A DNA stretch of 63,834 nt, the filler included, from Lama guanicoe (lineage: Eukaryota): assembly GCA_013239625.1 (NCBI GenBank). It is 80 parts of 78 records of this genome, joined end to end, with 100 filler letters (N's around TTAATTAATTAA, not from the genome) between each part and the next. Parts side by side here need not be neighbours in the genome. Positions count along the whole stretch, not along the records: positions 22,900 to 24,024 come from MU056786.1; 79 more parts are not named here. The stretch is one strand, 5' to 3'. This document shows, piece by piece, positions 1,814-62,964 of the stretch; positions within the stretch are counted from its first letter, which is position 1; every line of letters begins with the position of its first letter. The translations under genes were made by a program, and so were the position numbers. The notes below the pieces were generated by a model. The model was not told the origin of the DNA. It made no database searches and was given only the letters and a program-made list of their open reading frames with translations.

Positions 1814-2626
1814 GGTTTAACCTCCACACGCTCAGGATTCCAGAAACATAATCCGTGCGTGGGGGAGCTCGAGAGACAACTTCCTGCAGCTCTCTTCACT
1901 CACAGATATTCCCGGTTCGGGGGAAGTCCGAGAAATACATTCCTTGACCTTGGGGTGGCAGCTGCTGACCCTGGGAATTTCAGCGCAGATCCCTTGCATT
2001 CCCTGGCAGCCAGACATTAGGAAAACACTCAGGGGAGACGAGCTAAGGCAATACGTTAGAACCCACGCGCTGCCGACCGTTGGTGGATCCTCCCGACGCT
2101 CAGGATTCTGGAACCATAATCAGTGCATTGGGGAGCTTGAGGAAAAACCCCACGCAGCTCTGTTCAGTCCCAGGTGTTCCCGGAACGGGGGAAGTCCGTG
2201 AAATACCTTCCCTAAACTTAGGGAGGCAGCCTCTGTCTCTGGGATTTCCTGTAAACCCCCCTAGCGTTCCCTGGCACAGAGACATTAGGAAAACCCTCCG
2301 GGGTGATGAGCTAAGGCATTCCTTTAGAACCCACGCGCTGCCGAAAGGTTGGTGGAACCTCCCCACGCTCAGGATTCCGGAAACATAATCAGTGCGTGGG
2401 GGAGCTCGAGAGACAACTCCATGCAGCTCTCTTCTGTCACAGGTTTTCCCTGTTAGGGGGAAGTCCGAGAAATAACTTCCCTGACTTTGGGGAGGCAGCC
2501 TCTATCACTGGGAATTCATGAAATCCCCGCAAACATTCCCTGGCAAAGAGACATTAGAAAAACTTTCAGGGCAGACTAGCTTAGGCATTCCGTTTGAACC
2601 AACGCGGTACCGACCGTTAGTGGAAC
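1814..2626 (+). repeat. CpG-rich ~267-269-bp satellite, ~3 monomers (family A)
   Basis: GAGCT(C/T)GAG recurs at 1865, 2133, 2402; GACATTAG at 2013, 2281, 2550. Confidence 0.95.
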
Positions 2627-2726
2627 NNNNNNNNNNNNNNNNNNNNNNNNNNNNNNNNNNNNNNNNNNNNTTAATTAATTAANNNNNNNNNNNNNNNNNN
2701 NNNNNNNNNNNNNNNNNNNNNNNNNN

Positions 2727-3555
2727 TCCCTGAGTGTTTCCCTAGGACTGACTCTGAGAGAATCCTGGGGGTTCGTCTTTGAGCGCATATAGTAGCGAGT
2801 GTCTCTGATGGACTGAGGAAGTATTTAGATGAATTCTCCATAAAGGGAAACACCTGAGCACCCATTCATCTGCGTGGAGTGGGGCTTCAAATCTCCCCAC
2901 GACACAAGGTTGAGTTCCAGTATCCTGAGGGTGCGGTAGTTCCTCCAACTGACATCAGCGTCTTGGTTTNNNNNNNNNNNNNNNNNNNNNNNNNNNNNNN
3001 NNNNNNNNNNNNNNNNNNNNNNNNNNNNNNNNNNNNNNNNNNNNNNNNNNNNNNNNNNNNNNNNNNNNNNNNNNNNNNNNNNNNNNNNNNNNNNNNNNNN
3101 NNNNNNNNNNNNNNNNNNNNNNNNNNNNNNNNNNNNNNNNNNNNNNNNNNNNNNNNNNNNNNNNNNNNNNNNNNNNNNNNNNNNNNNNNNNNNNNNNNNN
3201 NNNNNNNNNNNNNNNNNNNNNNNNNNNNNNNNNNNNNNNNNNNGCTTGACTTCCCTAAGTGTTTTCCTAGGCCAGCAGTAAGCGATGGTGGGGGATGGGC
3301 TCTAAAGCCAAGTATTAGCGAGTGCATCTCTGTGGGTAGTGGAGGGTTTTAAACTACTTCCCCAACCTTGGAACAACTGTGCCTCATAAAGATGCGTGGA
3401 ATTTGTTTCCCCACCCCCAGCACACACACGGAGACGTGCTCAGGTATCCTGATTGTGGGGAGGCTCCTCTAAATGTCACCAGCGCCTGGGTTCTAAAAGA
3501 ATACTAAGCATGTCTTCCCTGATGGCATGCCTAGGCTGGAGAGTGGGGGAAAGTG
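2727..3555 (-). repeat. Diverged ~265-bp satellite (family B, related to family A)
   Basis: 3244-3555 is the near-identical reverse complement of ~4670-4985; 2727-2969 aligns with 56170-56430. Confidence 0.88.
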
Positions 3556-3655
3556 NNNNNNNNNNNNNNNNNNNNNNNNNNNNNNNNNNNNNNNNNNNNT
3601 TAATTAATTAANNNNNNNNNNNNNNNNNNNNNNNNNNNNNNNNNNNNNNNNNNNN

Positions 3656-5122
3656 CAGGGATTACAAGCTAAGGGATTCTATTAGAACCCAGCCACTTAT
3701 GTCAAATAAAATTGCCAGCCCACACTCAGGATAGCAGAATACTTCTTCATGTGTGTTCTGGTGGTGGGGATACAGAGTCCATGCTTCTTTCAAGGAGCAC
3801 AGGTATTCCCATGTTGTGGGTTTTTGGTTAATAACCTCCAAATCCCATGGAGAAGCACTCNNNNNNNNNNNNNNNNNNNNNNNNNNNNNNNNNNNNNNNN
3901 NNNNNNNNNNNNNNNNNNNNNNNNNNNNNNNNNNNNNNNNNNNNNNNNNNNNNNNNNNNNNNNNNNNNNNNNNNNNNNNNNNNNNNNNNNNNNNNNNNNN
4001 NNNNNNNNNNNNNNNNNNNNNNNNNNNNNNNNNNNNNNNNNNNNNNNNNNNNNNNNNNNNNNNNNNNNNNNNNNNNNNNNNNNNNNNNNNNNNNNNNNNN
4101 NNNNNNNNNNNNNNNNNNNNNNNNNNNNNNNNNNNNNNNNNNNNNNNNNNNNNNNNNNNNNNNNNNNNNNNNNNNNNNNNNNNNNNNNNNNNNNNNNNNN
4201 NNNNNNNNNNNNNNNNNNNNNNNNNNNNNNNNNNNNNNNNNNNNNNNNNNNNNNNNNNNNNNNNNNNNNNNNNNNNNNNNNNNNNNNNNNNNNNNNNNNN
4301 NNNNNNNNNNNNNNNNNNNNNNNNNNNNNNNNNNNNNNNNNNNNNNNNNNNNNNNNNNNNNNNNNNNNNNNNNNNNNNNGCTATGTGGCCTCCAAGCCCA
4401 ACAACCAGCTGTCCCTCTTGGCCTGGCCAAAAAGAACACTCAGGGAACAGAAGCTAAGGGATACTAATAGAATCCAGGTGCTGCTGTCAGTTTGAGGAAC
4501 TTCCCCACACTCAGAATACAAGAACACATCTTCGTGTGTGTGCTGGATGTAGGGAAACAGTCAAAGCATCTTTCAGGGGGCACATTTATTCCATGGTTGT
4601 GGGTTGTAGGTTAAAAACCCACATCCCATGGATAGGCTCTCGCTAATACTTGGTTTAGAGCCCAACCCCCACTTTCCCCCACTCTCCAGCCTAGGCATGC
4701 CATCAGGGAAGACAAGCTAAGGGATTCTATTAGAACCCAGGCGCTGCTGTCATTTGGAGGAGCCTCCCCACAATCAGGATACCTGAGCACGTCTCCGTGT
4801 GTGTGCTGGAGGTGGGGAAACAGATTCCACGCATCTTTATGGGGCACAGGTGTTCCAAGGTTGGGGAAGTAGTTTAAAACCCTCCACTACCCACCGAGAT
4901 GCACTCGCTAATACTTGGCTTTAGAGCCCATTGCCCACCATCGCTTACTGCTAGGCCAAGGAAAACACTTAGGGAAGTAAAGCTAAGGGATACTCTTAAA
5001 AGCCAGGTGCTGCTGTCTGTTGGAGGAACCTCGCCAAACTCAGAACCCCAGAACACTTCTTCCTGTGTGTGCAGGACGTGGGGAAATAGCACACGCATTT
5101 TTCCGGGGTCACAGTAATTCCA
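3656..5122 (+). repeat. Diverged ~263-266-bp satellite (family B), several monomers
   Basis: AAGCTAAGGGAT recurs at 4451, 4714, 4980 and near 3666. It shares the TTAGAACCCA.GCGCTGC...GGAACCTCCCCAC.CTCAG blocks with family A. Confidence 0.92.
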
Positions 5123-6029
5123 NNNNNNNNNNNNNNNNNNNNNNNNNNNNNNNNNNNNNNNNNNNNTTAATTAATTAANNNNNNNNNNNNNNNNNNNNNN
5201 NNNNNNNNNNNNNNNNNNNNNNCCCTTCACTAAAATCTAAGCTAAAAACGGGAAGCATTCTGTTTTGCACATTGCATATCCTTGACACTAAATATTTGAT
5301 GAACAAACCATTTTAGTCTAATTGTGGAAGCCCATTTTTCATCATGAATACTGTGACATCTTATTCCAAGTGAGAAAGATGCATGTGGGTTATTCTTCTT
5401 GAACTAGGACATACTTGAAGAAAGGCAAAAACCATTATACTAATCCCAAATCACAGTCCTTCTATAAAATAATATAAAAACCCAATGAAGAATGAAATTA
5501 CCCATCCTGTATTCCACGGTCATGCTTCTTCAGCCTCCTTTACAGTTAATGGGTACAGTATGGCTTTACTCTATTTGCATTACCTCCTGGGTGAATTCAT
5601 TTTCTGTTCTGNNNNNNNNNNNNNNNNNNNNNNNNNNNNNNNNNNNNNNNNNNNNTTAATTAATTAANNNNNNNNNNNNNNNNNNNNNNNNNNNNNNNNN
5701 NNNNNNNNNNNATAATAAAGAAAATCAAATTGATGGGAAGGGTCGAAGCAGCCACTGTGCCCCCAGCAGTGTGCCAGACAGCCATGCCAAATGTTAAGCT
5801 GCACAGGTCCTGTCTCTGCCCTGGAACGATCAGAGTGGGGGTGACAAATCTGTTGTGTCTGTGCCCCCACTAAACGGCTGCTGCTCAGCGACAGCACTAA
5901 TGAACCACAAGGTCCTCCAGCCAAGGACCTTACAGGGTGAAGGGTTCCATCAGCACATTATCAGAGAGGGCTCTGGAAAGAGGCAGGAAAGAGGGAGGAA
6001 GGAAGAGGACATTCCAAAACAGGGGAACC

Positions 6030-6217
6030 GCTACATAAAATAGATAAACCACAAGGTCCCACTGTACAGCACTGGGAACTATGCCCAATACTTCGTAATG
6101 GCCTAGAATGACAAAGAATCTGAAAGGGAACATATGTGTAAGTGAATCACCATGCTGTACAGCAGAAATCAACACATTGTAAATCAACTATATCATTAAA
6201 AAGTAAATAAATAAAAA
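6030..6217 (+). mobile_element. LINE-1 3' end with A-rich tail (cetartiodactyl type)
   Basis: aaaatagataaaccacaaggtcccactgtacagcactgggaactat...gctgtacagcagaaatcaacacattgtaaatcaactata followed by an A-rich tail. Confidence 0.85.
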
Positions 6218-6600
6218 CCAAGACAGAACAAAACAGGGGAACCACAGAGCGGAGGCTAAGGCGTGAAGGTGACAGCGCCTCCACCTGGGCACCAGGAGCC
6301 CAGCACTCACCGGCCGGCCTTGAGCCAGCACCTCTCGGGGTGGGGCCTCCCAGCCAGGATGATGCAGGGCAGGCACACAGGCTGCCTCTCCAGCACCCGG
6401 ACGGTGGAGGNNNNNNNNNNNNNNNNNNNNNNNNNNNNNNNNNNNNNNNNNNNNTTAATTAATTAANNNNNNNNNNNNNNNNNNNNNNNNNNNNNNNNNN
6501 NNNNNNNNNNGCCAGCCAGCCTGTGCAGAAAGCCCGCAAGAGCATCCTGCCTCATGGCATCAAGAATCACAGGGTCACCCATTCCACATCTCACACCTAC

Positions 6601-6982
6601 CTTTGACAAAGTTCCTATTTCTTCTGGCCGATGGTTTCTGCCTGGTTCCTTGAGTGACCTCATGGCATATCACTGGCTTGAATTCAGGATGAATTTGCTG
6701 ATCTGGAGTACCGGTTGAGCATAGATCCCCTCCTTCTCCAATACCTTTGTCCATTTCTGCACGTTTACTTGGTTGGCTTCTGTTTCTCTTTGGTTGAACT
6801 TGGTTTTGAGATCTCAGTTGCCTTTAAATGGTTGCATCTCAAAATAGATTTCCATAGGAAACGTCATCTTTTCTATTATGCTTGGCACACTTTTATCTAC
6901 TAGAAGGCTGATGATGTGCACGTTTTGTTTCTGATTTCAGCTCACCACTGCCTTGAATTAGATTTTGTTTCTTTTTTTTAAG
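6601..6982 (-). pseudogene. Candidate decayed coding exon of an unidentified multi-copy gene
   Basis: Minus strand: acceptor cctttcctgtctcctaag, 382 nt, donor AAAG|GTAGGT. One frame reads LKKKKQNLIQG...AEMDKGIGEGGDLCST...RRNRNFVK with 3 in-frame stops. A paralogous copy lies at 49460-49619. Confidence 0.45.
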
Positions 6983-7879
6983 CTTAGGAGACAGGAAAGG
7001 ATTTTGGTCAATAGGCTTTGAATTTATGCATGCGGGTTCATGTCTGCAAAGGCACCCCTTTGTGGTTCCTGTTTATAAGTCTACAGATAGAGGGAGTTTT
7101 TTTTATTCTCCTAAATTACATTCTATATAAAAAATAATTGCTTTTAAAAATATACATNNNNNNNNNNNNNNNNNNNNNNNNNNNNNNNNNNNNNNNNNNN
7201 NTTAATTAATTAANNNNNNNNNNNNNNNNNNNNNNNNNNNNNNNNNNNNNNNNNNNNCCTTTTTCTTACTGAAGCAGCCTTGGCAAGGCCTTTCCTTGGA
7301 CCCACTCCCTTGGCAATTCATTTGAGCCATTGAAATGAATGAGATTGAACATGAAAGAAAACATTCTGATTTAGACTTTCTCTACTTCCCGAGTTCCTGT
7401 ACTGATGTGGAGAAGAGTTCAGTTGTAAATACCTAGGAGATTGGTCTGGCTTTTTCTCCCTTCGAGTGTAATTTCTGCCCTGGACTGTCTTCCCGTTCCT
7501 GTGGATCAGAGCATGTGTTGGCTGGAGGGGTCGCGCCGATGTGACTGACCCTCAGAAGAGCCTGGAACATGGGAGACCGCTCTCAGTTACCGGCGTGACT
7601 CACGGAGCCCAGGGACTTTCTGTGGGGTCCACAGAGCCTGGGGACCCAGGACGGTGCCAAGAGGCTCCAAGCATAAAGCAGATGTCGTGGGTGGCCAGCG
7701 GGCAGGGCTCCTGGCGTGCCCCCCCGACATGCACACTTCATCCAGCATGACCCCCACTTTCCTCTGTTTTCTACGTTGANNNNNNNNNNNNNNNNNNNNN
7801 NNNNNNNNNNNNNNNNNNNNNNNTTAATTAATTAANNNNNNNNNNNNNNNNNNNNNNNNNNNNNNNNNNNNNNNNNNNN

Positions 7880-11799: not shown

Positions 11800-12437
11800 A
11801 ATTTAGAACATGGAATTCAGAACACAGAATTTAGAATACAGAGTACAGTATATTGAATGTACAATATAGAATTTTGAACACGGAATAATGATTATAGAAT
11901 ACAGAATACAGAACCCAGAATTTAGAATATAGAATACATAATACAGAATATAGAATGTAGAATTCAGAATGTAGAACACAATATGGAATATACAATACAG
12001 AATACAGAATATAGAATGTAGAATACAGAATGTAGAACACAGAATATAGAATATAGAATGCAGAATGCAAATCCGAGAATTTAGAACGTGGAATTCAGAA
12101 CACAGAATTTAGAAGATAGAATACAGAATATAGAATGCAGAATACAGAATGTAGAACACAGAATATGGAATATAGAATACAGAATACAGAACCAAGAATT
12201 TAGAACCTGGAATTGAGAAGAGATAATTTAGAATATAGAATTCAGAACATAGAATATTGAATGTAGAGTATAGAAGGTAGAACATGGAATATAGTATATA
12301 GAATACAGAATACAGAACACAGAATTTAAACATGGAATTCAGAACTCAGAATTTAGAATGCAGAATACCGAATATAGAATGTAGAATGTAGAATGTAGAA
12401 CACAGTATATAGAATATAGAATACAGAATACAGAACC
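11800..12437 (+). repeat. AT-rich heptamer satellite (AGAATAT/AGAATAC/AGAACAC/AGAATTT/GGAATTC variants), family C
   Basis: Continuous 7-bp periodicity of nGAAnnn units. Confidence 0.97.
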
Positions 12438-14336: not shown

Positions 14337-15158
14337 TAGAATAAGGAATTCAGAACACAGAATTAAGAATATAGTATAAAGAATAATGAATATAGTATTA
14401 AGAATATAGAATGTAGAACACAGAATATAGAATATTGAATACTGAATAAAGAATTTAGATTATAGAACTTAGGACACAGAATAGACAATATAGAATACGG
14501 AATGTAGAATATAGAATGCAGAATATTGAATATAGAACACAGAATATAGAATAGGGAAAAATATAATACAGATCCCAGAATTTAGAACATGGAACGCAGA
14601 ACACAGTAGTCACAATACAGAATACAGAATACTGCATATAGAATTTAGAATATGGATTGTAGGACACAGAATTTAGAATATAGAATACGGAATACTGAAT
14701 AAATTAATTAGAATATTGAATGTGGAACACAGAATATAGAATATAGAAAACGGAACACAGAATATAGAATTTAGTATATAGAAGGTAGAAATCAGAATAT
14801 AGAATATAGTATAAAGAATATTGAACCCAGAATTTAGAACATGGTATGCAGAACACAGAAATTACAATATAGAACACAGAATACTGAATATGGAATTTAG
14901 AATATAGAATGTAGAACACAGTATAAAGAATATAGAATACGGAATGTAGAATATNNNNNNNNNNNNNNNNNNNNNNNNNNNNNNNNNNNNNNNNNNNNNN
15001 NNNNNNNNNNNNNNNNNNNNNNNNNNNNNNNNNNNNNNNNNNGAACACAGAGAATATTGGATACAGTATACTGAATATTTTATTTAGAACATAGACTGTA
15101 GAACACAGAATAAAGCATATACAATACGGAATGCAGAATATATAATGTAGAATATAGG
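14337..15158 (+). repeat. Heptamer satellite, family C
   Basis: AGAATAT-type 7-bp periodicity. Confidence 0.96.
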
Positions 15159-15258
15159 NNNNNNNNNNNNNNNNNNNNNNNNNNNNNNNNNNNNNNNNNN
15201 NNTTAATTAATTAANNNNNNNNNNNNNNNNNNNNNNNNNNNNNNNNNNNNNNNNNNNN

Positions 15259-15760
15259 ATTTTATAGTCTATATTCTGTATTCTGCATACCATGTTCTTA
15301 ATTCTGTCTTGTGTATTCTGTTTCCATATTCTATATTCTGTGTTCTAAATTCTATATTCTGTATACTATATTTTGCATTCCGAATTCTATATTCTATTTT
15401 CAGTGTTCTACATTGTATATTCGAAATTCTATGTTCAGTATTCTGTATTCTATATTCTAAATTCTGTGTCCTGCATTCCATGTTTTAAATTCTGGGTGCT
15501 ATATTCTATACTCTATTCTATATTTTGTGTTTTTCATTCTTTATTCTACATTCTATATTCTGCATCCCGTATTCTCTATTCTGTATTATGTGTTCTNNNN
15601 NNNNNNNNNNNNNNNNNNNNNNNNNNNNNNNNNNNNNNNNNNNNNNNNNNNNNNNNNNNNNNCTAAATCCTGTATATTCTCTATTCTCTATTCTACATTC
15701 TGTGTTCTAATTTCTATATTCTTAATTATTTATTCAGTATACTTTACTCTATATTCTAAA
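15259..15760 (-). repeat. Heptamer satellite, family C (reverse orientation)
   Basis: TATTCTA-type 7-bp periodicity. Confidence 0.96.
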
Positions 15761-19589: not shown

Positions 19590-20650
19590 CTGTATTCTAT
19601 ATTCAATTTTCTGTGTTATTCATTCTATATCCTTAATTCTATATTTTGAATTCTGTATTCTATATTCTAAGCTCCGTGTTCTATATTCTATATTCTAAAT
19701 TCTGTGTTCTGCATTCCATGTTCTAAATTCTGTGTTCTATATTCTATATTCTATATTCTATATTCTGTGTTCTGCATTCCATGTTCTAAATTCTGTGTTC
19801 TATATTCTATATTCTATATTCTATATTCTGTGTTCTGCATTCCATGTTCTAAATTCTGTGTTCTATATTCTATATTCTATATTCTATATTCTGTGTTCTG
19901 CATTCCATGTTCTAAATTATGGGTTCTGAATTCGTTTTTCCATATTCTATATTCTGTGTTCTAAATTCTATATTCTGAAAAATATATTCTACATTCAGTA
20001 TTCTATATCCTATATTCTGTGTTCTTCAATCTATATTCTAAATTCTATATTCAGTATTCTGCTATTCTATAATCTTTATTCTGAGTTCTGCATTCCATGT
20101 TCTAAATTCTGGTTTCTATATTATCTCTCCTATATTCTATATTTTGTATTCTTTATTCAATATTCTACATTCTATATTNNNNNNNNNNNNNNNNNNNNNN
20201 NNNNNNNNNNNNNNNNNNNNNNNNNNNNNNNNNNNNNNNNNNNNNNNNNNNNNNNNNNNNNNNNNNNNNNNNNNNNNNNNNNNNNNNNNNNNNNNNNNNN
20301 NNNNNNNNNNNNNNNNNNNNNNNNNNNNNNNNNNNNNNNNNNNNNNNNNNNNNNNNNNNNNNNNNNNNNNNNNNNNNNNNNNNNNNNNNNNNNNNNNNNN
20401 NNNNNNNNNNNNNNNNNNNNNNNNNNNNNNNNNNNNNNNNNNNNNNNNNNNNNNNNNNNNNNNNNNNNNNNNNNNNNNNNNNNNNNNNNNNNNNNNNNNN
20501 NNNNNNNNNNNNNNNNNNNNNNNNNNNNNNNNNNNNNNNNNNNNNNNNNNNNNNNNNNNNNNNNNNNNNNNNNNNNNNNNNNNNNNNNNNNCATGCTCTA
20601 TATACTGGATTCTATATTCTATATTCTGTGTTCTACATTCTATATTCTAA
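19590..20650 (-). repeat. Heptamer satellite, family C, containing perfect 63-bp (9x7) tandem copies
   Basis: Three identical 21-aa repeats (CIPCSKFCVLYSIFYILYSVF) in the ORF track at 19704-19920. Confidence 0.97.
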
Positions 20651-22391: not shown

Positions 22392-22799
22392 GAATATAGA
22401 ATTTAGAATATACAATGTAGAAAAGAGAATAAAGAATATATAATTCGGAAAGCAGAATATAGAATACAGAATATAGAATGTAGGACACAGAATATAGAAT
22501 ATGGAAAACAGAATATAAAACCCAGAATTGAGAATATGGAATGCAGAAGACAGAATTTAGAATATAGAGAACAGAATACTGAATATAGAATTTCGAATAT
22601 AGAATGTTGAACACAGAATTTAGAATATAGAAAACAGAATACTGAATATAGAATTTAGAATATAGAATTGAGAACACAGAATAGAGAACATAGAATANNN
22701 NNNNNNNNNNAGAATTTAGAACATGAAATTTAGAACACAGAATTTAGAACATAGAATACAGAATACTGAGTATCGAAATTAGAATATAGAATGTAGAAC
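22392..22799 (+). repeat. Heptamer satellite, family C
   Basis: 7-bp periodicity. Confidence 0.96.
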
Positions 22800-22899
22800 N
22801 NNNNNNNNNNNNNNNNNNNNNNNNNNNNNNNNNNNNNNNNNNNTTAATTAATTAANNNNNNNNNNNNNNNNNNNNNNNNNNNNNNNNNNNNNNNNNNNN

Positions 22900-24024
22900 T
22901 TCAGATCTGTATGCACAGTACCAACGGAGGGAAGTGTGTCAATTTTCAGTTGATGATTTCACACGTCTTTAAACTTTCTAACAGTGCACAGTACACAGAG
23001 ACCCACTAAAGGAAACTTATGTTCCTGTAATATCCGTACACCCGGAATACATATCCGTCGGTTGATTTCTGCTGAAACCCCCGCACTNNNNNNNNNNNNN
23101 NNNNNNNNNNNNNNNNNNNNNNNNNNNNNNNNNNNNNNNNNNNNNNNNNNNNNNNNNNNNNNNNNNNNNNNNNNNNNNNNNNNNNNNNNNNNNNNNNNNN
23201 NNNNNNNNNNNNNNNNNNNNNNNNNNNNNNNNNNNNNNNNNNNNNNNNNNNNNNNNNNNNNNNNNNNNNNNNNNNNNNNNNNNNNNNNNNNNNNNNNNNN
23301 NNNNNNNNNNNNNNNNNNNNNNNNNNNNNNNNNNNNNNNNNNNNNNNNNNNNNNNNNNNNNNNNNNNNNNNNNNNNNNNNNNNNNNNNNNNNNNNNNNNN
23401 NNNNNNNNNNNNNNNNNNNNNNNNNNNNNNNNNNNNNNNNNNNNNNNNNNNNNNNNNNNNNNNNNNNNNNNNTTTCTTTTGAATAATCATGGTTCCCTTG
23501 GTATACGTCAGCCAACCGTACCCTTTGGGTGCTTGTTTTTTGGTTTGATTCTTTGTTGGTCTGCTTCTCGTTTGTTTTGCAAACACGTCAGGCCATGCAT
23601 CTCTCCGTTCGCTTCCAACTGAGAGTCATAGAAGCTGATTCACTTAAGATAGTGCTTCCAATCACCTATGATTTCCTGCTTCCCTCTCCCATCTTTAGGG
23701 TTTTGATGTCCTCCTTGCCTTCTTCTTGTTTCTTCTTTGCCACTCATGCTCTACTTGCATTTCCAATAATGGTTCTCTTCTTTGCATTTAATCTTGCTGC
23801 TTTTCTATTCAGGGGAGTATTCTTATGCTTTCCTCTAGGATAAGGTTCGAACTGCTGAAGTCTTTTAAGATTGGCCGGTCTGTGGAATTCTCTAGCTCTG
23901 CCGTTATTAGAATTGGCGGTCATGTGGCCTAGGCTACCCTAGATGACAGAATTTTGCCATTCAGAATATGGTCTCTGTCCTGGCACTCCTCCCTGTTTTC
24001 CAGTATTGCTGCCGAGATATCAGC
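22900..24024 (-). repeat. Multi-copy element derived from highly diverged L1 (endonuclease region to ORF1), copy 1
   Basis: Matches 47440-48193 and 54460-54640 (rc). The minus strand of ~23935-24024 translates ADISAAILENREECQDRDHILNGKILSSR, like L1 ORF1 ADFSAETLQARREW..I...GKNLQPR. Confidence 0.8.
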
Positions 24025-24194
24025 NNNNNNNNNNNNNNNNNNNNNNNNNNNNNNNNNNNNNNNNNNNNTTAATTAATTAANNNNNNNNNNNNNNNNNNNN
24101 NNNNNNNNNNNNNNNNNNNNNNNNGAGAAAACAAACTAACAAGAAATCAAAAAAGTAAAGACTTTTTCATTAAAGATTCCTGGAAAGAGTGGAG

Positions 24195-28792: not shown

Positions 28793-29280
28793 TGACTTCA
28801 TTGTAAGCTTTTGACTTATGGTTACCCTGTTTTGTATGTATGTTGACCCGTTACTATATATGTTTATATTAACTGAAATGAATACAAAGTCAACCGCATC
28901 ATACAGAGAACAGAAACAAGAAGAAAACACTCTGTATTTTCCTGTTTCACGCTCTGACACATAAAAATTTTGATGTCCTGTTTTACAATAACATTTTTAT
29001 TCTGTTGTAATTCATTTTAGCTATTGCCTTTCCAATTATGCCTTTCACCGTTCTATAGCATCCTGCNNNNNNNNNNNNNNNNTTTTTGAGGAGATGTTTC
29101 ATTATTTCTTTTTCTGTTGCTAAATACTTTTAGTATTTGCTTGTGTGGAGATTATTTATCTCTCCTTCTATTCTAATGGAAAGCCTTGCTTGATATATTA
29201 TCTTACATAACAGATTTCTTTCATTCTTGACTCTGAATATGTCTTGCCACTGCCTTCTGCCTGTTGTATTTGTGTGGGAA
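28793..29280 (-). mobile_element. Decayed L1 inter-ORF and ORF1 3' region, antisense
   Basis: tttagtatttgcttg...tttatctctccttctattct...ctctgaatatgtcttgccactgccttctg is typical antisense ORF1. 28793-28965 matches 50593-50763. Confidence 0.8.
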
Positions 29281-29329
29281 ACGTGTTTAAAAATATAATG
29301 TATATAATTATATATATGTAAAGAATACC

Positions 29330-29612
29330 TTCAAATGAAGTTAACAAATAAGGAGAAATTCTATACATTAAAAAATAGAAAATATTGATGAAGGAAAGTA
29401 AAATTGATCCAAAGAAATGAAAAGATCTCTTATGTTAATGATGTGAAATAATGTGGTTGAAACAACCATACAACCCAAAGGTATCTTAATTTAGTGTGAT
29501 TCATGTCAAAATACCCATGAGATTTTTCCATTATATAGAAGAAATAAATTCAAAATTTATATATAACCACAAAGATCTTGAGTTGACAAAATAATCTTGA
29601 AATAGAGTATTA
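29330..29612 (+). mobile_element. Decayed L1 ORF2 (post-RT) fragment, sense
   Basis: aaaatattgatgaaggaaag...aaatgaaaagatctc...ccatacaacccaaag...tcaaaatacccatgagattttt. Confidence 0.75.
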
Positions 29613-39894: not shown

Positions 39895-40322
39895 AAAAGT
39901 ATTAAGGATTAGGATCAGGGTCAAAATTAGGGGTAGGGTATGGGAATGGGTTAGGGTTAGGGTCAGTGTGAGGGTACAGGTGAGAGTTAGGAAAAGGGGG
40001 AGGGTGCGGATTAGGGTAGGAAATCGGGGTAGAGTACAGGTTAGGATAGGAGTTTGGGAATAGGTTAAGTTCAGGGTATGCGTAAGGTATGGACTGGGGT
40101 ACAAGTTAGGTTATGCATTAGGGAACGGCATAGGGTTAGGGCTACGGCTAGAACCACAGCAAGAGTTAGTGTTAGGGCTAGTGCTAGTACCAGAGGAAGG
40201 ACTAGAGTTAGACTCAGGGTTAAGGGTTAGAGGGTGAGGGATAGGACCAAGGTGAGACTGAGGGTTTAGGGAAAGGGTCAGGGTTAGACTCAGGGTTAGA
40301 CTCAGGGTTAGACTCAGGGTTA
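39895..40322 (+). repeat. Degenerate telomeric (TTAGGG-variant) array ending in (GGGTTAGACTCA)n
   Basis: 6-bp periodic TTAGGG/TCAGGG/TGAGGG/GTAGGG variants; ~3.5 copies of a 12-mer at 40281-40322. Confidence 0.9.
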
Positions 40323-41025: not shown

Positions 41026-41958
41026 TTAGGAAAACCCATGGGTGACGAGCTTACGCATTCCATTAGAACCCACGAGCTGACGAACATTGGTGGAACCTTC
41101 CGACACTCAGCTTTCCGAAAAAATATTCAGTGCGTGGGGGAGCTCGAGAGACAACTCCTCGCAGCTCTCCTCAGTCACAGGTGTTCCCTTTTAGGGGGAA
41201 GTCCCAGAAATAGCTTCCCTGAACTTGTGGAGGCAGACTCTCTAACTGGGAATACCTGAAACCCCCGCTAACATTCCCTGGCAGAGAGACATTAGGAAAA
41301 CCCTCAAGGCAGACAAGCTTTGGTATTCCGTTAGAACCCACGCGCTGCCGTCCGTTGGTGGTACCTCCCCACGCTGAGGATTCCGGAACCATAATCAGTG
41401 CGTAGGGGAGCTCGAGAGACAACTCCACGCAGCTCTTTTCAGTCACTGGTGTTCCCTTTTAGGGGGAAGTCGCAGAAATATCTTCCCTGACCTTGGGGAG
41501 GCCGCCTCTCTAACTGGGAATACCTGAAACCCCCACTAAAATTCCCTGGCAGAGAGACATTAGGAAAACGCTCAGGGCAGACGAGCTTTGGCATTCCGTT
41601 CGAACCCACGCGCTGCCGTCCGTTGGTGCTACCTCCCCACGCTGAGGATTCCGGAACCGTAATCAGTGCGTGGGGGAGCTCGAGAGACAACTCCACGCAG
41701 CTCTCTCCAGTCACAGGTGTACCCTGTTAGCGGGAAGTCCAAGAAACATATTCCCAGACCTAGGGGAGGCAGCCCCATTGTGCTTGGGCTCGAGAGACAT
41801 CTCCACGCAGCTCTCTTCAGTCACAGGTGTTCCTTGTTTGTGCGGAGCTCGAGAGACATCTCCACGCAGCTCTCTTCAGTCACAGGTGTTCCTTGTTAGG
41901 GGGAAGTCCGAGAAATAGCTTCCCTGACCTTGGGGAGGCAGCCGCTAACACTGCACTG
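41026..41958 (+). repeat. ~268-bp satellite, family A, with internal rearrangement
   Basis: ORFs 41171-41446 and 41439-41714 are near-identical and offset by 268 bp; 59-bp duplication at 41788/41847. Confidence 0.96.
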
Positions 41959-42058: not shown

Positions 42059-42730
42059 GGCATTCCGTTAGAACCCATGCGCTGCCGCCTTTGGTGGAAC
42101 CTCCACATGCTCAGGATTCCGGAACAATAATCAGTGCGTGGGGGAGCTCGAGAGACATCTCCATGCAGCTCTCTTCAGTCACAGGTGTTCCCTGAACGGG
42201 GCAATTCCGAGAAATACCTTCTCAAACCTTGGGCTGGCTGCTGCTGACGCTGGGCCTTCCAGTGCAGTTCCCTAGCATTCACTGGCTGCCAGAACTTAGG
42301 AAAACACTCAGGGGAGACGAGCTTAGGCAATCCTTTAGAACGCACGCGGTGCTGACCTTTGGTGGAACCTCCCCACGCTCAGGATTCCGGAAACATAATC
42401 AGTGCGTGGGGGAGCTCGAGAGACATCTCCACGCAGCTCACTTCAGTCACAGGTCTTCCCGTCCGGGGGAAGTCTGAGAAATACACTACCAGACCTTAGG
42501 GAGGCAGCCTCTGACTCTGGGATTTCCTGTAAACACCCCTAGCGTTCCCTGGCACAGAGCCATTAGGAAAACCCTCAGGGGTGACAAGCATAATCATTCC
42601 CTTAGAACCCAAGCACCGCCGACCGTTGGTGGAAGCTCCCAATGCTCAGGATTCCGGAACCATAATCATTAGGTGGGTGAACTCGAGAGACAACTCCACG
42701 CAGCTCTCTTCAGTCACAGGTCTTCCCAGT
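42059..42730 (+). repeat. ~268-bp satellite, family A
   Basis: GAGCTCGAGAGACA at 42144 and 42412. Confidence 0.96.
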
Positions 42731-47378: not shown

Positions 47379-48193
47379 TAAGGTAAATGTGATTCTACCC
47401 ACTAGCGTCCCATGGGCCTTTGTTCTAACCTCTTTCCTTTTGCTAAGATCTGTTTGCACTCTAGCAACGGAGGGAAGTGTGTCCATTTTCAGTTGAATGT
47501 TTCACACGTCTTTAAACTTTCTAACAGTTCACAGTACACAGAGACCCACTAAGGGAAACTATTGTTCCTGTAATATGGGCACACCCGCAATACATAGCCG
47601 TCGGTTGATTTCTGCTGAAACACCCGCATTCACGGGACANNNNNNNNNNNNNNNNNNNNNNNNNNNNNNNNNNNNNNNNNNNNNNNNNNNNNNNNNNNNN
47701 NNNNNNNNNNNNNNNNNNNNNNNNNNNNNNNNNNNNNNNNNNNNNNNNNNNNNNNNNNNNNNNNNNNNNNNNNNNNNNNNNNNNNNNNNNNNNNNNNNNN
47801 NNNNNNNNNNNNNNNNNNNNNNNNNNNNNNNNNNNNNNNNNNNNNNNNNNNNNNNNNNNNNNNNNNNNNNNNNNNNNNNNNNNNNNNNNNNNNNNNNNNN
47901 NNNNNNNNNNNNNNNNNNNNNNNNNNNNNNNNNNNNNNNNNNNNNNNNNNNNNNNNNNNNNNNNNNNNNNNNNNNNNNNNNNNNNNNNNNNNNNNNNNNN
48001 NNNNNNNNNNNNNNNNNNNNNNNNNNNNNNNNNNCTACCCTTTTTGTGTTGTTTGTTTGTTTGATTCTTTCTTGGTCTGCTTCTCGTTTGTTTCGCAAAC
48101 ACGTCAGGCCATGCATCTCTCCGTTTGATTCAAACAGAGAGTCATAAAAGCTGACTCCCTTAAGATAGTGCTGCCAATCCCCGATGATTTCCT
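47379..48193 (-). repeat. L1-derived multi-copy element, copy 2
   Basis: Collinear with 22900-23680 on both sides of an internal gap; near-identical to 54458-54694 (rc). Confidence 0.85.
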
Positions 48194-50017: not shown

Positions 50018-50763
50018 TTTCCTGTGTGAAAGATCAGTCCAGTGATGGTAATGTGGTGTTATAATCTCCTACTATGATTGTTTTTCCAGTGAGTAATCTC
50101 TTTTTATCTATTAGTATTTGCTTTATGAATTTAGGTGCTCCTATATTGAGTGCACATATCTTAATGGGTGTAAAACCTTTATTTTGTATTGTTCTTTTAA
50201 TCGTTATACCATGTCCTTGTTTATCTTTCTCTATGGCCTTTCTTGTAAAGTCTATTTTGTGTAAAGTCAGTACTGCTAGTCCTTTTTTCTTGTCATGTGC
50301 ATTTGCATGGAATATAATATGAGTTTGAATTGATGTGTTCTCCTGTTACTAAAGTGGGTCTCTTGTATGCTTCATAATGTAGGGTGTTGTTATATTATCC
50401 CATCTGACAATATATATCTTTTGATTGAACCACAATGTCCATTACGTTTCTGATAATTGTTGATAGACCAGTGTTTATTTAGATTTTAAACTTCATTTTC
50501 CAGTTGATTTGGTATCTCTTTTTTGATCATTTTTTTTTCTTTTTGTGGCTTGATAAGTTTTCTTTTATTATCTTGGTTTCTTTTTGTCTTTGTGACTTCA
50601 TTGTAAACTTTTGAATTATGGTTACCTTGTTTTGTATTTATATTGACCCGTACTATACCTGTTAATTTTACTGATTAGAATACAAATTCAAACCCATCCT
50701 ACAGAGAAGAGAAACAAGAAGAAAACCCTCTGTATTGTCCTGTTTCACTTTCTGACGCTTAAA
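50018..50763 (-). mobile_element. Decayed L1 endonuclease region and inter-ORF, antisense
   Basis: ttagtatttgctttatgaatttaggtgctcctatattgagtgcacatat corresponds to the I(Y/C)A.NIGAPKFIKQIL motif of the L1 endonuclease. Confidence 0.88.
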
Positions 50764-54230: not shown

Positions 54231-54694
54231 ATTTGGAATCCAATGGATTCCTAGTCCGTGATACAGACTTGCAAGTCTTTCAACAGTATGAATGAATGCC
54301 ATCTTCTACACTACGTAGAGAAGAAATGGCACAAGCCTACAACAAGGAAAAGTAGCTCCGCAAAAGTGTACTAAGATCAAAAGAGACAGGCAGTAAAGTG
54401 GACATTGGGGATTGTATCTTTCCTAGGAATTTCAGCCCCCTTGAAACAAATGGATAGATGTCCCGTGAATGCGGGTGTTTCAGCAGAAATCAACCGACGG
54501 CTATGTATTGCGGGTGTGCCCATATTACAGGAACAATAGTTTCCCTTAGTGGGTCATGAACTGTTAGAAAGTTTAAAGACGTGTGAAACATTCAACTGAA
54601 AATGGACACACTTCCCTCCGTTGCTACAGTGCAAAGTGATATGAGCAACAGGAAAGAGGGAAGAACAAAGGCCCATGGGACGCTAGTGGGTAGA
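54231..54694 (+). repeat. L1-derived multi-copy element, copy 3 (endonuclease-like region)
   Basis: 54458-54694 is the reverse complement of 47394-47639 with an ~11-bp deletion; ggaatttcagcccccttgaaacaaatggatagatgtccc resembles L1 GDFNTPL..MDRSS. Confidence 0.8.
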
Positions 54695-61823: not shown

Positions 61824-62125
61824 GAGCAAGTATTGAAAATGGAGGTGAGGGAAACACTGAAGAACAACAGTGTCTCAGAATCACAAAAGGCAGAATACCA
61901 GAAAAGGGGAAGAGAAAGCCTAAAGACGAGCCAAACTATATCAGAAAACTCAGTGAATGAGAAAATATCAAGGCTAACATTCCGTCCTAAGCAGACGAGA
62001 TATTGCAGAGGGACGCGTGAATATCTTTGAAGACAGGTGAATACAAATCCCTCGGTCAGAAACACACATAGGAAATTAAGTGCAAACCAATGAAAACATT
62101 GCTGTTGAATCCTGGTTGAAGACAA
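61824..62125 (+). mobile_element. Highly diverged L1 ORF1 coiled-coil region
   Basis: SRRDIAEGRVNIFEDR*IQIPRSE resembles L1 ORF1 SRLD.AEERIS.LEDR..EI.QSE. Confidence 0.5.
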
Positions 62126-62225: not shown

Positions 62226-62964
62226 AGCGGTTTACAGGAGAAACACTTACTCTGGGTTCTCAGTCTGTTTCCTGGTGCCAGTTGGATGTTCCTGCAGTTT
62301 TCACTGTAAAACAGAGTTGAAGCTTGTACCTCCTCATATATATTTATGTAGTGGGGTTTGCAACTGAAAAGTAACTTTGTGTTCCCACCATGCTAGTTGA
62401 AGGACGGCATTCACAAACACTTATATCTCAGAACTGAGCATGTGGCGAGATGTTCTTTCATCCAGCACAATGGGAGTGATATAATCACTCTGGTTTCTCA
62501 GACTGTTTCCTAGTGGTAGTCTGTTGTTCCTGCAGTTTTCATTCTGAAACCGAATTGGTGCTTGTACTTCCCCATATATATATATGTAGTGGAGGTTTAA
62601 AATGAAAAGAAACTTTGTGTTCCCTTAAACTGGTTGAAGGAAGGCTTTCTCACACACTTTCCTCTCAGAACTGAGCATGTAGTGAGACGTTCATTCATCT
62701 ATCACAAACGGAACGGTCTGCACGAGAAGGTCTTACTCTGGTTTCTCATTCTGTTTACTACTCCTGGTATGATGTTCCAGTAGTTTTCAATGTAATAACA
62801 GTTTGGAGCTTTTACCTCCCCTTATATATGCATGTAATGGGTTTTGCAACTTAAAAGAACCTTTGTGTTCCATTCAAGCTAGTTGAAGGAAAGCTTACAC
62901 TCTCACATAATTATGAGAACTGAGCATGTGGAGAGACGTTCGTTGATGAAGCCTTAAGGGAGCA
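62226..62964 (+). repeat. ~240-250-bp satellite, 3 diverged monomers (family D)
   Basis: ACTCTGG.TTCTCA at 62249, 62487, 62735; each unit carries TGAAAAG..ACTTTGTGTTCC and AGAACTGAGCATGT. Confidence 0.93.

Follow-up and report, generated by a model that had tools for sequence, protein, structure and literature searches.

Three short unplaced scaffolds of the Lama guanicoe genome are very probably fragments of the ~5.3-kb VpaSat08/09/11/12 macrosatellite of camelid chromosome short arms, a repeat that would hold an old L1 element and would have been amplified at the DNA level. The satellite itself is already known. VpaSat08-5290, VpaSat09-5280, VpaSat11-5308 and VpaSat12-5280 were published in 2026 as one major alpaca family with ~5.3-kb monomers; tandem arrays were evidenced by dot-plots, PCR was positive in all camelids tested and FISH of the four members gave signals on the short arms, above the centromere, in 16-20 chromosome pairs (PMC13751797, cited here and below from its accessible sections). 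In those sections the abundance of the family is stated as not quantified and no origin of the monomer is given, transposons, cetaceans and macrosatellites being unmentioned (the term L1 itself lay outside this check). What the present analysis adds is a relic of L1 ORF1 and of the adjoining inter-ORF spacer, together with a rough copy number.

Identity of the repeated element

The window, that is, the whole stretch of 63,834 nucleotides that was analysed, is composed of 80 short unplaced scaffolds with fixed spacers between them. A blastn comparison among the 80 recovered one common element in only three of them, 22900-24024, 47379-48193 and 54231-54694 (copies 1, 2 and 3; E 1e-53 to 1e-102), in agreement with a previous sequence-only reading of this DNA. 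Copies 2 and 3 are 96.2% identical (9 differences over 236 aligned bases), which bears out the near-identity proposed for them, and are further separated by a deletion in copy 3 that measures 10 bp and not ~11 bp as initially given. Copy 1 had been described as the more diverged one, and indeed it is 88.8% (188 nt) and 89.3% (159 nt) identical to copy 2 and 87.1% identical to copy 3. Copies 1 and 2 consist each of two pieces placed around a scaffold gap (385 and 395 N, respectively), with identical order, strand and spacing of the pieces (Table 1). The CpG observed/expected ratios of copies 1, 2 and 3 (0.52, 0.66 and 0.51, respectively) are well above those of the ten scaffolds with ordinary L1 in the window (0.05-0.32), so that the element is, as had been remarked, CpG-rich for a dead L1; scaffolds of a 267-bp satellite ranged from 0.23 to 0.64.

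Table 1. Features of the three copies and of a separate L1 piece, with positions along the window
Feature	Position	Strand	Evidence
Copy 1, VpaSat11-matching part	22900..23087	-	Exact 25-mer at 22912-22936; no significant L1 match
Scaffold gap (385 N) inside monomer	23088..23472	.	Partly represented by 54231-54467
Further monomer sequence up to scaffold gap	23473..23518	-	~3,000x reads; 2,270 continue into one common flank
Decayed L1 inter-ORF spacer, long-spacer L1 family	23519..23808	-	Continues ORF1 alignment
Decayed L1 ORF1 3' end (C-terminal domain), 71 codons + ORF1 stop	23809..24024	-	Gap-free, two internal stops
Copy 2, VpaSat11-matching part	47379..47639	-	Exact 17-mer at 47402-47418; 88.8% to copy 1, 96.2% to copy 3
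Copy 2, putative L1 spacer part	48035..48193	-	89.3% to 23519-23677
Copy 3	54231..54694	+	From 54391: matches VpaSat11 printed start; no significant L1 match
Decayed L1 ORF1 coiled-coil piece, separate scaffold	61824..62125	+	39.1 bits vs shuffles 15.8±2.1, 0/200; 56% over 272 nt to reference L008

Assignment to the VpaSat family is based on the VpaSat11-5308 consensus, the first 400 of whose 5,308 letters were compared; in its printed form this consensus appears to carry homopolymer noise. Within these, exact matches were found for the 25-mer of copy 1 and for the 17-mer common to copies 2 and 3. By eye, 54391-54694 is colinear with the printed VpaSat11 start over ~300 nt, the consensus continuing into the end of copy 2, and the majority read flank behind 23087 has 22 exact letters in common with the consensus. 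The element thus shares with the family its sequence over the readable part, a similar GC content (44% vs 45.8% in VpaSat11) and the condition of a multi-copy camelid repeat. Four of the eight published primers of the family gave no matches, at up to three mismatches, in the window, which covers only part of the monomer. The tandem organisation is taken from the accessible sections of PMC13751797; the 1.2-kb target used here for read placement is without a head-to-tail junction and the contig pieces listed measure 117-376 nt.

Copy number, flanks and heterogeneity

Sequences of a raw Hi-C run and of three contig sets were placed on 22856-24068, with 80% likeness as the threshold. The raw run, of 1,938 Mb (~0.8x), contributed 29,080 placed reads, with a depth of 3,329-4,676 over 15 full bins (mean 4,064). 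For an assumed genome of 2.1-2.6 Gb this corresponds to ~4,400-5,500 copies, a value that represents an order of magnitude because it derives from a single Hi-C library, and to ~1.1% of the genome if every copy sits in a 5.3-kb unit. The estimate from read depth that had been proposed as a check of the element thus yields thousands of copies and not 2-3 loci. Reads of ordinary L1 cannot explain this depth, since likeness to the element does not exceed 61% in any L1 fetched. Depth is equal in the L1 and VpaSat11 parts of the element. Between 2,148 and 2,401 reads pass beyond each of the four edges of the sequence into one common flank (agreement 0.90-0.93), and another 497 reads have the flank type of copies 2 and 3.

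The copies had been announced as almost identical, which turned out to be overstated, as most reads are 80-95% like copy 1. Identity to copy 1 was at least 99% for 209 of the 29,080 reads, 95-99% for 3,152, 90-95% for 14,611 and 80-90% for 11,108; with 209 reads in the first class and 25,719 between 80 and 95%, sequence varies among the members of the family, from which copy 1 stands apart at many sites. A local departure of copy 1 from the family was observed at 23823-23835, where 888 reads break off into another sequence. Words of 23473-24024 were present in 19 of 23 listed runs, belonging to eight studies with five organism labels, in small shares (0.34-0.42); reads were placed for three of these 19 runs and for one added raw run, and the others are unused as evidence. 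A conserved 24-mer of the element had no matches in metagenome contigs.

The L1 ORF1 and spacer relic

Pfam searches of six read-through frames retrieved no families, and phmmer searches of PDB with three frames retrieved no L1 match. The Pfam result is uninformative because a true L1 endonuclease used as control also gave none (its PDB match had E 1.3e-20). As both searches are blind to L1 here, dedicated L1 references were fetched, comprising 150 endonuclease relatives and 24 loci, several of them with ORF1 and spacer.

The assignment of ~0.5 kb of copy 1 to the 3' end of an L1 ORF1 followed by the inter-ORF spacer, which is made at the sequence level, is well supported by the comparison with these references. 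In the ORF1 part, tblastn detected the ORF1 of L1 locus L006 with E 3.5e-7 in this small reference set (31% identity over 70 aa), and a frameshift-aware ORF1 profile scored 28.2 bits vs 16.4±2.1 for shuffles (0/200). The same part aligns gap-free over 225 nt to four references at a DNA identity of 50-56%, with a peak at codon position 2, and the stop at codon 72 falls where four of five reference L1s have the ORF1 stop. Without composition correction, nhmmer aligned ORF1 and spacer together over 488 nt (E 9e-21). A DNA profile of the ORF1 end and spacer, built from nine long-spacer L1 pieces of which two are ordinary L1 scraps of this window, reached 68 bits vs 17.6±2.1 for shuffles (z ~24) with a match of ~490 nt. 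In pairwise DNA tests, five of seven references gave z values of 5.9-14.9 and the other two gave 2.5 and -0.4; the spacer was also recognised with L016, a reference without the ORF1 block (z 5.9, 0/150 shuffles). The spacer part of copy 2 exceeded shuffles with L016 (z 4.7, 0/150) and with the DNA profile (1/200), and was not above shuffles with six other references.

Two observations concern sequence that had not been fitted or that varies within the family. The 30-letter read flank beyond 24024, which was unfitted, corresponds by eye and without gaps to the next upstream ORF1 bases of reference L008 at 21 of 30 positions. Of 20 listed sites at which copy 1 and the reads disagree, L008 has the letter of the reads in 13 and that of copy 1 in four (p 0.049), and three other references showed the same trend at a non-significant level. 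Composition-corrected HMMER searches of the L1 part gave weak values (E 0.062 and E 0.012), and none of five pieces was significant in pairwise DNA comparison with the old L1 of the window at 50018-50763.

Altogether, the ORF1 remnant suspected previously is sustained by tblastn, by profile scores above shuffles and by the coinciding stop. The L1 profile match, whose absence had been named as contrary to an L1 derivation, holds for the ORF1 end and spacer of copy 1 and fails for the VpaSat11-matching parts and copy 3. The proposed comparison of copy-to-copy with copy-to-L1 likeness gave 87-96% vs 50-61%. An ordinary ORF1 scrap of the window is 64-71% like references that the satellite relic matches less well, so the relic is either older or faster-changing, two options that these data do not separate. 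The L1 part would lie inside the monomer, as it is joined to the VpaSat11 part in two scaffolds and has equal depth and common flanks, and it should be found at the 3' end of the VpaSat11 consensus, beyond the 400 letters compared. What is demonstrably L1 is ~0.55 kb of the 5.3-kb monomer (~10%). The designation "L1-derived macrosatellite" is in this way appropriate in that an ancient L1 relic is present, and too wide in that L1 origin is demonstrable for that ~0.55 kb only.

The ORF2 side and the extent of the L1

An endonuclease remnant had also been claimed, with a GDFNTPL..MDR-like motif. In unrestricted ORF2 protein and L1 DNA tests no score was above shuffles: 22900-23087, 47379-47639 and 54231-54694 remained at shuffle level with the 150-sequence endonuclease profile, the ORF2 profile, the DNA profile and the seven pairwise references. 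An ordinary endonuclease piece of the window, taken as control, reached 97-157 bits with the protein profiles and 149 bits in the frameshift-aware test. For the endonuclease reading, copy 3 and the left parts can be aligned by eye in at least four ways, the motif-like one included, and none beats shuffles; as several such readings compete, none is trustworthy. Among six position-restricted post-hoc tests, one detected a weak signal of the endonuclease start in copy 1 (7/300 shuffles). ORF2 is expected to start beyond the spacer, but the ~0.5 kb known on that downstream side was without L1 signal, and either the L1 ends near the ORF2 start or its ORF2 part is scrambled beyond detection. The extremities of the element, with any 3' end, poly(A) tail or target-site duplication, lie outside the window. 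A duplication of the ORF1 end and spacer inside copy 3 was considered and discarded, as it appeared in one alignment only (z 1.6). In a word-index protein search the endonuclease control had 84 candidates, none of them scored, and an ORF2 C-terminal piece had only short 3' fragments among those listed.

Compatible with the macrosatellite explanation, and possible although rather improbable, is that a single decayed L1, comprising 5' UTR, ORF1, spacer and a scrambled ORF2, makes up the entire 5.3-kb monomer. The length of a full L1 is close to that of the monomer, the reads continue upstream into ORF1, and a second, equally decayed ORF1 piece was detected on a separate scaffold (61824-62125), which in an intact L1 would lie ~310 nt upstream; the faint endonuclease-start signal, post hoc and in one of six tests, points in the same direction. 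This second piece is, by its sequence, a candidate for the upstream part of the same monomer. However, it is unlinked to the monomer, and the sequence after the spacer is without an ORF2 match even though ORF2 is better conserved than ORF1 and the control gave 149 bits. Two other duplicated scaffold pairs, possible monomer parts, lack an L1 signal as well. These are 6511-6760/49460-49700 (88.8% identity) and 17337-17726/26423-26809 (94.1%), and either pair may belong elsewhere in the 5.3-kb monomer or represent a different repeat. Slightly less probable still is the further proposal that the dominant repeat of camelid short-arm heterochromatin (~1% of the genome) represents one ancient L1 of nearly full length, with its promoter side, that was converted into a 5.3-kb tandem monomer and then diverged faster than dispersed L1.

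Proposed origin of the monomer

The copies are 87-96% alike and 50-61% like any L1, have common flanks, keep their CpG and match a tandem monomer; tandem amplification is thus the simplest history. It can be proposed that one genomic segment with a long-dead L1, of which at least the ORF1 end and the inter-ORF spacer were present, was converted into a tandem monomer that was multiplied to ~5,000 copies by DNA-level processes and not by retrotransposition, the decay of the L1 presumably preceding the amplification. Unequal exchange, gene conversion and exchange between chromosome short arms would be candidate processes according to standard satellite theory. The L1 relic would be non-coding, carried along within a heterochromatic repeat. 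The 5.3-kb tandem unit may have formed before the camelid split, as PCR products were reported for both lineages (PMC13751797, accessible sections). For a camelid macrosatellite amplified at the DNA level, as had been surmised, argue the VpaSat11 match, with the tandem dot-plots and FISH of the same source, the thousands of read copies and the common flanks.

An explanation in which the element is a passenger of a larger segmental duplication block bearing gene fragments would agree with copies that differ by 4-13% and with the blocks of this type noted for camelids (PMC13751797, accessible sections), but it is quite improbable, as those blocks amount to tens of copies and the depth found here to thousands, and as the match is directly to a tandem monomer. 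Even less credit is given to a dispersed, non-autonomous L1-derived subfamily retrotransposed in trans. Full-length dispersed copies would also show common flanks at internal points, and no junction was seen here; nevertheless, L1 retrotransposition usually leaves copies truncated at the 5' end, whereas the ORF1 region, on the 5' side, is present in all of the ~5,000 copies, and CpG is kept, unlike in the ordinary L1 copies of the window. Furthermore, tandem arrays were the source of the matching consensus, whose family has FISH signals clustered on short arms (PMC13751797, accessible sections). Equally implausible is that the L1 likeness is a by-product of an A- and purine-rich composition: the weak composition-corrected E-values (0.062 and 0.012), the lack of Pfam or PDB matches and the non-significant comparison with one old L1 of the window are in its favour, but Pfam also missed the true endonuclease control, dinucleotide-preserving shuffles were far exceeded (z ~24 with the profile, z 12-15 pairwise), and the 225 nt gap-free alignment, the codon-position pattern, the coinciding stop and the unfitted flank match are contrary to it.

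Comparison with other L1-containing satellites

The common cetacean satellite, whose monomer measures ~1.6-1.8 kb, was reportedly described by Kapitonov, Holmquist and Jurka in 1998. It resembles the 3'-terminal part of L1 (PMC9659126; also cited in PMC8909793 and PMC6947457; accessible sections of the three). Like the camelid repeat, it is a cetartiodactyl heterochromatic satellite of long monomer that contains a decayed L1; in contrast to that 3'-terminal part, the camelid monomer of 5.3 kb contains the ORF1 end and spacer. The two would likely be independent. PROsat of the hamster Phodopus roborovskii, also a mammalian satellite with an L1-like part, differs in that it has a small region 88% like L1 ORF2 (PMC9659126, accessible sections), whereas in camelids the part comprises ~0.5 kb that is 50-61% like ORF1 and spacer.

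Alpaca heterochromatin was reported to be extensive and variable, the accessible sections of that report holding nothing on its origin (PMC9547437). In the literature covered, which was mostly without subscription papers and without the VicPac4 genome paper, no L1 origin of a camelid satellite was found, PMC13751797 being the only relevant source in the text accessible. On this literature basis, repeat-database annotation apart, the L1 part of the satellite appears to be unreported. It is an initial indication of how a major heterochromatin satellite of camelids originated, accompanied by an approximate abundance (thousands of copies and ~1% of the genome), and adds a transposon relic in a mammalian macrosatellite, in this case from the ORF1 side of L1; no function is implied for it. 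In repeat landscapes of camelids, satellite copies could be counted as "ancient L1" and raise its numbers. If the monomer were a near-full-length L1, it would join the cetacean satellite as the second case in the same mammalian order, independent, larger and built from the opposite end of L1.

Other repeats in the window and in the references

Ordinary old L1 pieces at 50018-50763 (-) and 28793-29612 (-), each with ORF1 end, spacer and endonuclease, overlap with 85.5% likeness and served as controls. Among the references, L018-L022 (~2350-7349), continued by L011, L017 and L023, constitute one host locus that is 98.7-99.9% identical across several metagenome assemblies, where its coverage is high (8-46x). 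This locus, which is unrelated to the window element, has two successive ORF1-spacer-endonuclease pieces of L1, 3.3-3.6 kb apart and ~80% alike; its low CpG content fits nested old L1s better than a satellite.

A satellite of 266-269 bp with two diverged subfamilies was observed at 4435-5122, 1819-2626, 41026-41774 and 42059-42727. By eye, its 266-bp consensus resembles the printed start of VpaSat16, and the 1,863 bp of the latter (7 x 266) suggest that VpaSat16 is a 7-mer higher-order repeat. An abundant AT-rich 7-bp satellite with higher periods of 35 and 63 bp occupies 11800-12437, 14337-15760, 19590-20650, 22392-22799 and about nine more scaffolds; the matches of the ORF1 coiled-coil profile on it were discarded as low-complexity artefacts. 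A third tandem repeat, with a period of 238 and 2.9 copies, is located at 62246-62941, and 39970-40322 holds telomere-like degenerate G-rich repeats with periods of 12-43.
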